Shown piece after piece: positions 44,588 to 48,293 of a stretch of 64,000 nt of DNA (position 1 is its first letter; each line of letters opens with the position of its first letter). The stretch lies in NCBI RefSeq assembly GCF_050920415.1, contig NZ_CP169309.1. One strand, written 5' to 3'. This DNA is from Escherichia coli. Lineage in GTDB: Bacteria; Pseudomonadota; Gammaproteobacteria; Enterobacterales; Enterobacteriaceae. Made by a program: the position numbers and the translations under genes. The notes under the pieces were generated by a model that saw nothing but the letters and a program-made list of their open reading frames with translations, did not search any database and was not told where the DNA came from.

Positions 44588-44690
44588 CTGCCTGATGCGC
44601 TATGCTTATCAGGCCTACGAGGTTTCTGCAATGTATTGAATTTGCATGTTTTTGTAGGCCGGATAAGGCGTTCACGCCGCATCCGGCATG
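44588..44690. repeat. REP/BIME element
   Basis: CTGATGCGCTATGCTTATCAGGCCTAC and GTAGGCCGGATAAGGCGTTCACGCCGCATCCGGCA. Confidence 0.85.
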
Positions 44691-44716
44691 AACAACGCGC
44701 ACTTTGTCAACAATCT

Positions 44717-44746
44717 GAAACGAGGAGTGTTCCCCCTCGTTTTTTA
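44717..44746. terminator. Hairpin with flanking A- and T-tracts downstream of yqjF (possibly bidirectional)
   Basis: GAAACGAGGAGTGTTCCCCCTCGTTTTTT. Confidence 0.5.
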
Positions 44747-45159: not shown

Positions 45160-45316
45160 CTTACTCTCCACTGCGCCGCTCAGGCTGCTGATTGTTTTTT
45201 TGTGCAAGGGCGCGGTATTAGCGTCGTTGCTTTCGATGGAGAGAATCATAAACGTGGCGAAGCGTGATTGTTAGCAAGGAAAACTGTCAAATATTTTCAA
45301 AAAATTTGAGGAATAA

Positions 45317-45335
45317 GGCCGGAATGTCTCCGGCC
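45317..45335 (-). terminator. Stem-loop downstream of yqjK
   Basis: GGCCGGA-ATGTC-TCCGGCC hairpin followed by a T-rich tract on the minus strand. Confidence 0.5.
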
Positions 45336-45345
45336 AGAGAGGAAG

Positions 45346-45645
45346 TTAACCGCGAAGCTGTTGTTGCTTGAGGGTTGTTTTCACCAGACGCCAGGCGCTC
45401 CATACACCAAAACCGCGTCTGGCCCAGCGGACCAGCATATTGGGATGACGAATCGTCCAGATAGCCATCACACTACTGCCAACCAGCGCCCAGGAGCGCA
45501 GACTCAGCAGCATATTCCAGCGACGATCATAAGCGCCTGTCGCCTCCAGCCATTCACGACGACTGGCGGAAAGATCCAGCCGTTGTTGCTGGATCTGGCT
45601 AAGCAGTTGCGCCTTACGTCGTTCACGTTCGACTTTACTGCTCAC
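45346..45645 (-). CDS. yqjK: Uncharacterized protein YqjK
   Basis: ORF 45346..45783 trimmed to GTG start at 45643-45645 (VSSKVERERRKAQ...) with GGAGG RBS; overlaps the yqjE stop. Confidence 0.75.
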   Translation of the reverse strand: MSSKVERERRKAQLLSQIQQQRLDLSASRREWLEATGAYDRRWNMLLSLRSWALVGSSVMAIWTIRHPNMLVRWARRGFGVWSAWRLVKTTLKQQQLRG

Positions 45646-46039
45646 GGGACTCCTCCTCGAGCAGTTGCCGATCGTTTGCCAGCTCATGGCGCGTATGGCG
45701 CAGTAAGGTGGATTTACGCGATTTACGTAACGTCCAGATACCGCCAATGAGTGCCAGTAGCAGCAACACCACGGTGGTGGCAATCATCGCATTCAGGCGA
45801 TATTGCGGATCAACCGCCCAGATAATCAGCACCATCAGGCTCATAAGACCAAATGCAGCGAAAAGCATCGTCAGGCCCAGCATCAGTAAAAGCTGAAAGA
45901 GATTGGCTTTTTCCTCTTCCAGCTCCACCACCGCCAGCCGCAGACGTGTCTCCACCATTTCAACCATGATGGAAACAATTCGCTGCCCGATGCCCAGAAC
46001 GCTTTTACCGGGCCCTTGCGCGTGATGAGTGTCCGCCAT
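45635..46039 (-). CDS. yqjE: Inner membrane protein YqjE (DUF1469)
   Basis: ORF 45635..46108 trimmed to MADTHHAQGPGKSVLG... Confidence 0.85.
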   Translation of the reverse strand: MADTHHAQGPGKSVLGIGQRIVSIMVEMVETRLRLAVVELEEEKANLFQLLLMLGLTMLFAAFGLMSLMVLIIWAVDPQYRLNAMIATTVVLLLLALIGGIWTLRKSRKSTLLRHTRHELANDRQLLEEESREQ

Positions 46040-46041
46040 AA

Positions 46042-46347
46042 TTAACGACGCGACAGCAGAACGCCGAGCACTACACCGATTGCAGCGCCAATGCCCACGC
46101 CCGTCCATGGATTTTCACGCACATACTCATCGGCACGCGCCGCCGCGACACGGGTTTGTTTGGCAATGGCATCACCGGTTTCACCCAGGCGATAACGGCT
46201 CTGTTTCAGTGCCTGCTCCGCTTTGCTACGAATCTTACTCAACTCTTCTTTCGACTTCTCGCCAGATGAGCTAAGCACCTCTTCCAGCGTATCGGAAAGG
46301 GATTTCAACTCAGCACGCAGATGTTCCGTAGTGTGTTCTTTCGACAT
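46042..46347 (-). CDS. yqjD: Ribosome-associated membrane-anchored protein YqjD (DUF883, ElaB family)
   Basis: 101-aa ORF with C-terminal transmembrane segment. Confidence 0.88.
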   Translation of the reverse strand: MSKEHTTEHLRAELKSLSDTLEEVLSSSGEKSKEELSKIRSKAEQALKQSRYRLGETGDAIAKQTRVAAARADEYVRENPWTGVGIGAAIGVVLGVLLSRR

Positions 46348-46384
46348 AGTTTTCTCCAGGTGAGTAAGTAGTGACTATTGTGAG

Positions 46385-46753
46385 TTAGTAGTCGCGCGCT
46401 TCCAGCTTTTTCAGCTCTTCCTGCGCTTCTGCCAGTTTCCGTTCGCGTTTGGCAATCTTATCGGCATCGCCTTTTTGCTTCGCCTCGGCTAAATCTTGCT
46501 GGCGTTCCGCCACCTCATCTTTCTGCTTTGCGATTTTCTTCTGATGATCGGCACGCAGCTGGCTATCTGAACAGTTGGCCCGGACTTCACTCAGGGCTTT
46601 ATTCAGACCGTCAATACGATTCTGGTTTTGGTGTTTTTCGGCATAGCTGATCTCCTTAAGGATATTTTGCTCCTTTTCCTGACACAGGGTAGTGGCATAA
46701 CTACCGGTACTAAGAGCAAAAAGAGAAACAGCTAAAGCGATGCGGTATTTCAT
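46385..46753 (-). CDS. yqjC: Periplasmic protein YqjC (DUF1090)
   Basis: ORF 46385..46768 trimmed to MKYRIALAVSLFALSTGSYA signal peptide. Confidence 0.85.
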   Translation of the reverse strand: MKYRIALAVSLFALSTGSYATTLCQEKEQNILKEISYAEKHQNQNRIDGLNKALSEVRANCSDSQLRADHQKKIAKQKDEVAERQQDLAEAKQKGDADKIAKRERKLAEAQEELKKLEARDY

Positions 46754-46899
46754 TCTTGAACCTTCCATTGTGATTCGGACCTATTACAAAGGAACGATTG
46801 TCCAGACAACGAAGCGGTAGTGTTAACCACCGCCTCATTAATCATAGACAGTTACGGTGAAATCACCAAAGTGAGTGATCTGTTTCGGATAACAGGAAG

Positions 46900-47949: not shown

Positions 47950-48293
47950 TCATTATTCCTGGTGAATCGGTTAACGCCACGCTGGTTTTAAAAGATGCAC
48001 TACCGCAATGTTATTGCTGTTTTGGTATGTTCTGCGGGTTTGATACATCAACACAGCCTGAACTATTCCCTGTTAAATCGTGAGATAAGAAAGCATTCAA
48101 AAGCATAAATTCAAATTGAATCTAATTGTAACAAAGGTCAACGTTGTTCGTTATCAAAATTACATGTCCGTGGAGTCTGATTTTGCTGAATGCAGGGGAG
48201 GGTGGCGAGAGGATTTACACAGGCTGACACTTTATACTTTTCGCTTACCGACGAGGCAAACAGGCGCGTCGTTGCGCCTGCCGAATGGGGATT

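Follow-up and report, generated by a model that had tools for sequence, protein, structure and literature searches.

Escherichia coli YqjD is anchored in the inner membrane by its C-terminal tail, dimerizes via a glycine-zipper transmembrane helix, and uses its N terminus to bind the 50S subunit near the tunnel exit and block translation; ribosome binding and translation inhibition have both been published for this protein (10.1101/2024.08.16.608256). Its overproduction arrests growth (PMC10746276). The gene belongs to the yqjCDEK operon, whose transcription RpoS drives in stationary phase from a promoter 82 nucleotides (nt) upstream of yqjC and from another inside yqjC that yields yqjDEK, and translation of yqjC and yqjD is repressed in growing cells by CsrA, which binds GGA sites at and upstream of their ribosome-binding sites (PMC10746276). 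Transcripts of yqjCDEK and yqjDEK have been inferred, and further starts were predicted upstream of yqjE and yqjK (PMC10746276). We analyzed this operon in a 64,000-nt stretch of an E. coli genome (contig NZ_CP169309.1 of assembly GCF_050920415.1; the whole stretch is called the window below), following up an initial annotation made from the sequence. The RpoS dependence that the annotation had proposed to check was already in print, and YqjK was, as it had said, without a defined function: YqjC, YqjE, and YqjK were still listed as uncharacterized in 2024 (PMC11551758). Taken as a whole, the locus is probably best explained as a stress operon in which yqjE is coupled to yqjD, YqjE and YqjK are accessory partners of YqjD, and there is no holin system.

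The gene layout was taken from the list of open reading frames (ORFs) and the sequence, together with RefSeq, where a 100% identical E. coli record carries the same gene models and gene names as those read here. The four coding sequences (CDSs) are as follows.

46385-46753, minus strand: yqjC, CDS of 122 amino acids (aa), DUF1090 protein with a signal peptide, predicted to be periplasmic (RefSeq; Pfam E 2e-34)
46042-46347, minus strand: yqjD, CDS of 101 aa, DUF883 tail-anchored ribosome-inactivating protein (Pfam DUF883 and DUF883_C)
45635-46039, minus strand: yqjE, CDS of 134 aa, two-pass inner-membrane protein, Phage_holin_3_6 (Pfam E 3.5e-21)
45346-45645, minus strand: yqjK, CDS of 99 aa with a GTG start, very basic two-helix protein (RefSeq; PF13997, E 4.5e-25)

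The intergenic distances are 37 nt, 2 nt, and -11 nt, and the shared strand, the short or negative gaps, a promoter upstream, and a terminator-like hairpin downstream mark the genes as an operon. The initial annotation had identified the same genes, in agreement with the Pfam families expected and the RefSeq names, and had their order right without stating the strand. Its extent of 45346 to 46768 was accurate at the inner end and needs a 15-nt correction at the outer end, where yqjC starts at 46753 and not at 46768. The 1.7-kb block was found in 5,422 of 5,426 complete E. coli genomes, in a single copy in nearly all, and is therefore part of the core genome; in the window it is 100% identical to that of E. 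coli MFDS1022581 and 95 to 99% identical to most others. The locus is the E. coli core-genome operon yqjC-yqjD-yqjE-yqjK, which had been annotated and substantially characterized before this analysis, and the initial observation as written adds nothing to the existing annotation and publications. What the present analysis adds is comparative support for the yqjK GTG start, for a yqjE without a ribosome-binding site, and for the yqjD-yqjE-yqjK triad as a unit.

The comparison rests on the orthologous locus fetched from 80 Enterobacteriaceae species, to which all counts out of 80 refer. The order mzrA-yqjC-yqjD-yqjE-yqjK-yqjF was kept in these loci, except that tblastn did not find mzrA in one and yqjF in two. 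Codon-position entropy at the third position was far above that at the first and second in all four genes (0.56/0.33/1.21 for yqjK), and this concentration of variation at third positions argues that all four are translated and under selection. A 129-aa antisense ORF (45361-45750, plus strand), which shares the codon register of yqjK and of the last part of yqjE, was rejected as a by-product of codon usage; its frame contains at least one stop within yqjK in 65 of the 80 species.

The junction between yqjD and yqjE is more striking than that between yqjE and yqjK and has the following form.

46037-46044, minus strand: yqjD stop/yqjE start junction TAA-TT-ATG, without a Shine-Dalgarno (SD) sequence; putative termination-reinitiation site

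The yqjD stop codon (TAA, 46044-46042) is followed by TT and then by the yqjE ATG at 46039, giving the 2-bp separation that had been reported at first. This gap measured 1 to 2 nt in every one of the 80 species, and none had an SD core upstream of yqjE. The SD pairing energy of yqjE was +1.1 kcal/mol in the window, with a median of +0.6 kcal/mol and no value below -1.7 kcal/mol among the species. In five of six distant loci, described below, the yqjE start likewise lies next to the yqjD stop or overlaps it (TAATG or TAA-N2-ATG); the gap is 11 nt in the sixth (L088). Such tight spacing is not due to chance, and a nearly abutting stop and start combined with a downstream gene that has no SD of its own is the arrangement of a coupled pair. 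Since yqjE has no SD and starts 1 to 2 nt past the yqjD stop throughout, we infer that ribosomes terminating on yqjD reinitiate on yqjE and so translate it. YqjE output would in that case be tied to YqjD output, and deletion of yqjD will probably abolish YqjE too, a point relevant to the design of clean deletions and fusions.

The yqjK gene is arranged differently with respect to its upstream neighbor.

45635-45658, minus strand: yqjE/yqjK junction, with the SD GAGGAGGAG (45658-45650) in Glu codons of the YqjE tail and the GTG at 45645-45643

As initially annotated, the yqjE stop (TAA, 45637-45635) and the yqjK GTG produce an 11-bp overlap, and a GGAGG (45656-45652) precedes the GTG by 6 nt. 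The pairing of this SD with the 3' end of 16S rRNA (-11.8 kcal/mol) is the strongest in the operon; the median across species was -9.3 kcal/mol, and 3% of the 20-mers of the operon reach -9 kcal/mol. A start codon occupied the homologous position in all 80 species (GTG in 48, ATG in 29, and TTG in 3). The claim that yqjK starts at the annotated GTG is supported by this conserved position and strong SD, and yqjK would be translated from its own SD within the last codons of yqjE.

A longer YqjK of 113 aa could instead start at an in-frame ATG (45687) located 42 nt upstream, in which case the GTG and its GGAGG would be a coincidence; some public entries (P0001) do carry a 113-aa form. That ATG has no SD (+1.9 kcal/mol); of the Escherichia loci, L003 and L010 do not have it, and L004 has GTG in its place. 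In 63 of the 80 species, the annotated start is preceded by an in-frame stop with no other start codon between the two, which makes any upstream start impossible there. Conservation of the YqjK N terminus, MS(S)K..ER..RKA.LLSQIQQQRLDL, sets in at residue 1, and the majority of the full-length distant homologues start no more than a few residues away from profile position 1. The upstream start is therefore extremely improbable. The annotation of YqjK in public entries is noisy: among P0001, P0053, and P0064, some are 113 aa long from the nonconserved upstream ATG, and other homologues are named "Cell division protein FtsH," with no FtsH-type family among the Pfam matches at E <= 0.01.

The size of the overlap varied among species. 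In 79 of the 80 species, the junction was at most a 2-nt gap or an 11-nt overlap: there was a 2-nt gap in 5, a 1-nt overlap in 13, a 4-nt overlap in 43, an 8-nt overlap in 11, and an 11-nt overlap in 7, while the remaining species had a 32-nt overlap. The 11-nt overlap of E. coli is a minority form, attributable to the variable YqjE tail, and overlap size is not conserved. What is conserved at this junction is the abutment and an SD encoded by acidic tail codons, with a GGAGG no more than 20 nt from the start in 57 of the 80 species. The yqjE stop occurs in two frames relative to yqjK (the 1- and 4-nt versus the 8- and 11-nt overlap classes; window 45635-45660 and L002-L081), which indicates indels in the labile C-terminal tail of YqjE. 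The acidic LLE(E/D)(E/D) codons from which the yqjK SD derives are kept despite this lability.

A profile search with YqjK gave only 158 clusters among 1.84 billion representatives; six were looked up, with E values from 3e-16 to 1e-4 and the loci of P0233 counted once. A word-based protein search with YqjK found only close relatives among its best 120 matches. The YqjK gene lies directly downstream of a Phage_holin_3_6 (YqjE-like) gene in all six distant loci. The YqjE-like gene is preceded by a DUF883-type gene in four of them by Pfam and in L087 by a YVRENPW motif only, Pfam having found nothing for the gene with this motif. No DUF1090 gene was found upstream of the distant triads where the flank was available. 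Loci of the Edwardsiella type (L085 and L086, 927-3288) have the order yqjA-mzrA-yqjD-yqjE-yqjK, with yqjC not between mzrA and yqjD, which suggests that yqjC was added within Enterobacteriaceae or lost in that lineage. Thus, judging from these sequences, the conserved unit is a triad of DUF883, YqjE-like, and YqjK-like genes, in the same order and tightly abutted. The same synteny has been reported by Njenga et al. (10.1101/2024.08.16.608256).

These results bear on how far the four genes belong together. They could be neighboring stress genes with unrelated functions, packed by genome compaction; yqjC and yqjDEK have separate promoters and respond in opposite ways to some stresses (PMC10746276), and yqjC is absent from the distant triads. 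Against this, the order and abutment of yqjD, yqjE, and yqjK persist down to a YqjK profile E value of about 1e-4, and the yqjE gene, having no ribosome-binding site in any of the 80 species, would depend on yqjD for its translation. We consider unrelated functions unlikely for the set of four and plausible for yqjC alone, which looks like an addition with partly independent regulation. The proposal of a stationary-phase membrane-ribosome module is supported by published work on YqjD and RpoS, with the qualification that the internal yqjDEK promoter and the distant relatives that keep only yqjD, yqjE, and yqjK speak against one uniform module of four genes.

YqjD has an N-terminal DUF883 helical domain (PF05957; E 4e-13, 49.5 bits versus a cutoff of 25.4) and a DUF883_C domain (PF19029; E 1.4e-15), with one hydrophobic segment at residues 81 to 99. 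Residues P80, W81, G85, A88, G91, and G95 were invariant in 25 sequences, distant ones included, and G85/A88/G91/G95 form a glycine zipper. The window protein is the standard E. coli YqjD of RefSeq. The description of YqjD as a ribosome-associated, membrane-anchored DUF883 protein is thus borne out by Pfam and by the published ribosome inactivation (10.1101/2024.08.16.608256). YqjD also has a weak match to the PADLOC model LeoC, a candidate defense-system protein (E 7e-5, 21 bits), probably through shared coiled-coil or tail-anchor composition.

YqjE scores 75.8 bits against Pfam Phage_holin_3_6 (cutoff, 28.4) and has two strongly hydrophobic segments, at residues 58 to 76 and 84 to 102. That match, and the RefSeq name "phage holin family protein," would fit a holin-like membrane toxin, the block being a toxin/antidote or cryptic lysis module in which YqjK and/or YqjD restrains YqjE pores. 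YqjE overproduction causes growth arrest and raised persistence (PMC4738310), and the tight gene coupling resembles that of toxin-antitoxin pairs. However, growth arrest upon overproduction is common among small membrane proteins, YqjD included, and the YqjE homologue of Pseudomonas aeruginosa is not toxic (PMC11302039). No match to YqjE came from PHROGs, NCBIfam, or PADLOC, and there is no endolysin or other phage gene nearby, the neighbors being yqjF, mzrA, and yqjA. The yqjE locus is core genome in E. coli and syntenic across the 80 species, and yqjE is regulated by RpoS and CsrA like other stationary-phase genes (PMC10746276). A holin-like toxin is thus an improbable explanation. In detail, PHROGs returned no family for YqjE at E <= 0.01 and no match of meaningful score for any of the four proteins, and the genes around yqjE (yqjD, yqjK, yqjF, and mzrA) are not those of a phage lysis cassette with an endolysin; a defense-system reading was rejected as PADLOC gave no match for YqjE or YqjK.

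YqjK matches PF13997 at 88.3 bits (cutoff, 28.1), covering profile positions 1 to 73 of 73, and is very basic, with 19 K+R versus 6 D+E. Its most hydrophobic 19-residue segment, which includes an invariant Arg, has a Kyte-Doolittle score of only 1.35. The initial description of "two small membrane proteins" accordingly holds for YqjE, with its two hydrophobic helices, and less firmly for YqjK. AlphaFold2 modeled YqjK as a two-helix hairpin (helices 3-66 and 68-98; pLDDT 79, pTM 0.36), for which Foldseek found no match in the PDB. Profile comparison gave no homology of YqjK to YqjD or YqjE (probabilities of 0.2% and 0.6%, respectively), and no solved structure related by sequence was found for YqjC, YqjD, YqjE, or YqjK.

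We suggest that YqjE, with its two transmembrane helices, and YqjK may act as accessory membrane partners that tune the anchoring, dimerization, or release of YqjD at the membrane, and not as a phage-type holin system. In YqjK, a long basic helix in the cytoplasm would lead into a segment of weak hydrophobicity, with an amphipathic helix after it. It is possible, if somewhat doubtful, that YqjE and YqjK are dedicated YqjD partners, with reinitiation setting the YqjE:YqjD ratio and the basic YqjK helix contacting the ribosome or acidic lipids, and that together they control YqjD dimerization, ribosome tethering, and release on regrowth. If so, the triad would amount to a three-part machine for ribosome hibernation at the membrane, one that is conserved in the diverse loci examined here and has been reported across Proteobacteria. 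Membrane-anchored ribosome-hibernation factors form a widespread family for which this locus is the archetype, with yqjE and yqjK as conserved partner genes.

Several observations weigh against a partnership of YqjE and YqjK with YqjD. Purified YqjD alone inhibits translation in vitro, and its paralogues ElaB and YgaM reportedly have no yqjE or yqjK neighbors (10.1101/2024.08.16.608256); any partner role of YqjE and YqjK would therefore be accessory. AlphaFold2 applied to a Gly-Ser-linked YqjD-YqjE-YqjK chain gave a pLDDT of 59 and a pTM of 0.25, which lends a complex no support, although the fusion was artificial and its paired alignment of 30 rows shallow. The failed fusion prediction also counts in favor of unrelated functions. 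In P. aeruginosa, the homologues PA3040 and PA3041 were not toxic when overexpressed, and a deletion phenotype was seen for the third gene only (PMC11302039). For YqjK, the literature examined contained no ribosome-profiling or N-terminal peptide evidence: yqjK is not mentioned in acid-stress Ribo-seq supplements, and the protein is not among the N-terminomics entries listed, its tryptic peptide MSSK being too short to detect. The same K-12-referenced table does contain the YqjD N-terminal peptide MSKEHTTEHLR and the annotated YqjE N-terminal peptide MADTHHAQGPGKSVLGIGQR (PMC13245402 supplement).

YqjC, which stands apart from the triad, matches Pfam DUF1090 at 118.2 bits (cutoff, 24.4). Its N terminus, MKYRIALAVSLFALSTGSYA, resembles a signal peptide, and two Cys residues are conserved in 79 of the 80 species. 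These features agree with the periplasmic protein named in the initial annotation, the location itself being a prediction. The yqjC ATG at 46753 was present in all 80 species and has an SD pairing of -6.2 kcal/mol. The ATG at 46768, in frame and 15 nt upstream of the annotated start, has no SD (-3.1 kcal/mol) and is in frame in only 17 of the 80 species. Pourciau et al. (PMC10746276) changed the A of this ATG, as A(-15)G, within CsrA binding site 1 (BS1), and the CsrA-binding motif AUGGA with A(-15) overlaps the yqjC SD. The control elements of the operon are as follows.

46835-46847, minus strand: RpoS-dependent yqjC promoter, with the -10 element CTATGATT at 46847-46840 and the start A at 46835 (-82 from the yqjC ATG)
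46761-46768, minus strand: AUGGAAGG, CsrA BS1 (46768-46764; PMC10746276) over the yqjC SD, containing the upstream ATG at 46768
46448-46460, minus strand: internal RpoS-dependent yqjDEK promoter inside yqjC, with the start within CCAAA at 46452-46448 (-105 to -101 from the yqjD ATG)
46354-46421, minus strand: CsrA sites BS2 (46421-46419), BS3 (46403-46401), and BS4 (46357-46355)
45299-45335, minus strand: terminator-like hairpin GGCCGGA-GACAT-TCCGGCC (45335-45317), followed by UUAUU and a run of six T's at 45304-45299

All published promoter and CsrA elements (PMC10746276) map exactly onto the window. The published location of BS2 and BS3 is the region from -80 to -50 relative to the yqjD start, at distances of 61 and 43 nt to BS4 (PMC10746276), and the GGA motifs of the window agree exactly with this spacing. 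By our own reading, the -10 element of the yqjDEK promoter would be TAAGAT (46460-46455). At the BS1 position, AATGGAAGG is the commonest sequence among the 80 species and not a universal one. The terminator-like hairpin, found by a terminator scan, lies 11 nt past the yqjK stop (fold of -15 kcal/mol; z = -3.75). A stable hairpin and T run follow yqjK in 45 of the 80 species, with sequences that differ and are unrelated in other genera. Rfam found no RNA families in the operon.

Outside the operon, mzrA and yqjA lie upstream and the separately transcribed yqjF (DoxX family) lies downstream. The spacer between yqjK and yqjF ranges from 172 to 1,292 nt among species. In the window, it holds a promoter-like site between the yqjK terminator and yqjF (CTAACA, 18 nt, TATGAT; 45245-45274, minus strand) and an AT-rich tract (45290-45316), consistent with a separate yqjF promoter. 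Farther downstream, between yqjG and yqjF, there are REP-type repeat elements (44611-44717), where Rfam ES036/CssrF matches 44611-44651 on the minus strand at 38.4 bits, barely over its gathering score of 37.6 bits, and naRNA4 matches 44657-44693 under its gathering score. RefSeq also places a very small gene, yqiM (27 aa), just upstream of yqjA (L001 5272-5355; window approximately 47971-48054, minus strand).

The closest described system is the yqjCDEK operon of E. coli K-12 (b3098 is yqjD and b3099 is yqjE, with yqjC and yqjK on either side; Pourciau et al. 2023, PMC10746276), with which the window shares genes, order, junctions, promoters, and CsrA sites. Both published transcription starts (-82, and -105 to -101) and BS1 to BS4 all fall exactly on their counterparts; the window represents another strain, with no functional difference evident. 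Phage holins of the clan "holin superfamily III" share with YqjE the above-threshold Phage_holin_3_6 score and two transmembrane helices. Unlike them, YqjE has no phage context, endolysin partner, or PHROGs match and is the product of a chromosomal, RpoS-regulated core gene.

The three-gene P. aeruginosa operon PA3040-PA3042 (PMC11302039) resembles yqjDEK in its makeup, with a YqjD-like (DUF883) gene, one like yqjE, and a small third gene at spacings of less than 15 bp, and in being expressed in stationary phase and under envelope stress. It differs from yqjCDEK in having no yqjC and in that overexpression does not inhibit growth. The only deletion phenotype there, in a clinical isolate, belongs to the third gene, and PA3042 is likened to yqjK here by its position. 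Within the YqjD/ElaB/YgaM family (Njenga et al. 2024, 10.1101/2024.08.16.608256), the window YqjD shares the DUF883 domain, the Pro-Trp before the transmembrane helix, and the glycine zipper. ElaB and YgaM are duplicates that arose in Enterobacterales, and YqjD is the archetype, with yqjE- and yqjK-like neighbors (10.1101/2024.08.16.608256).

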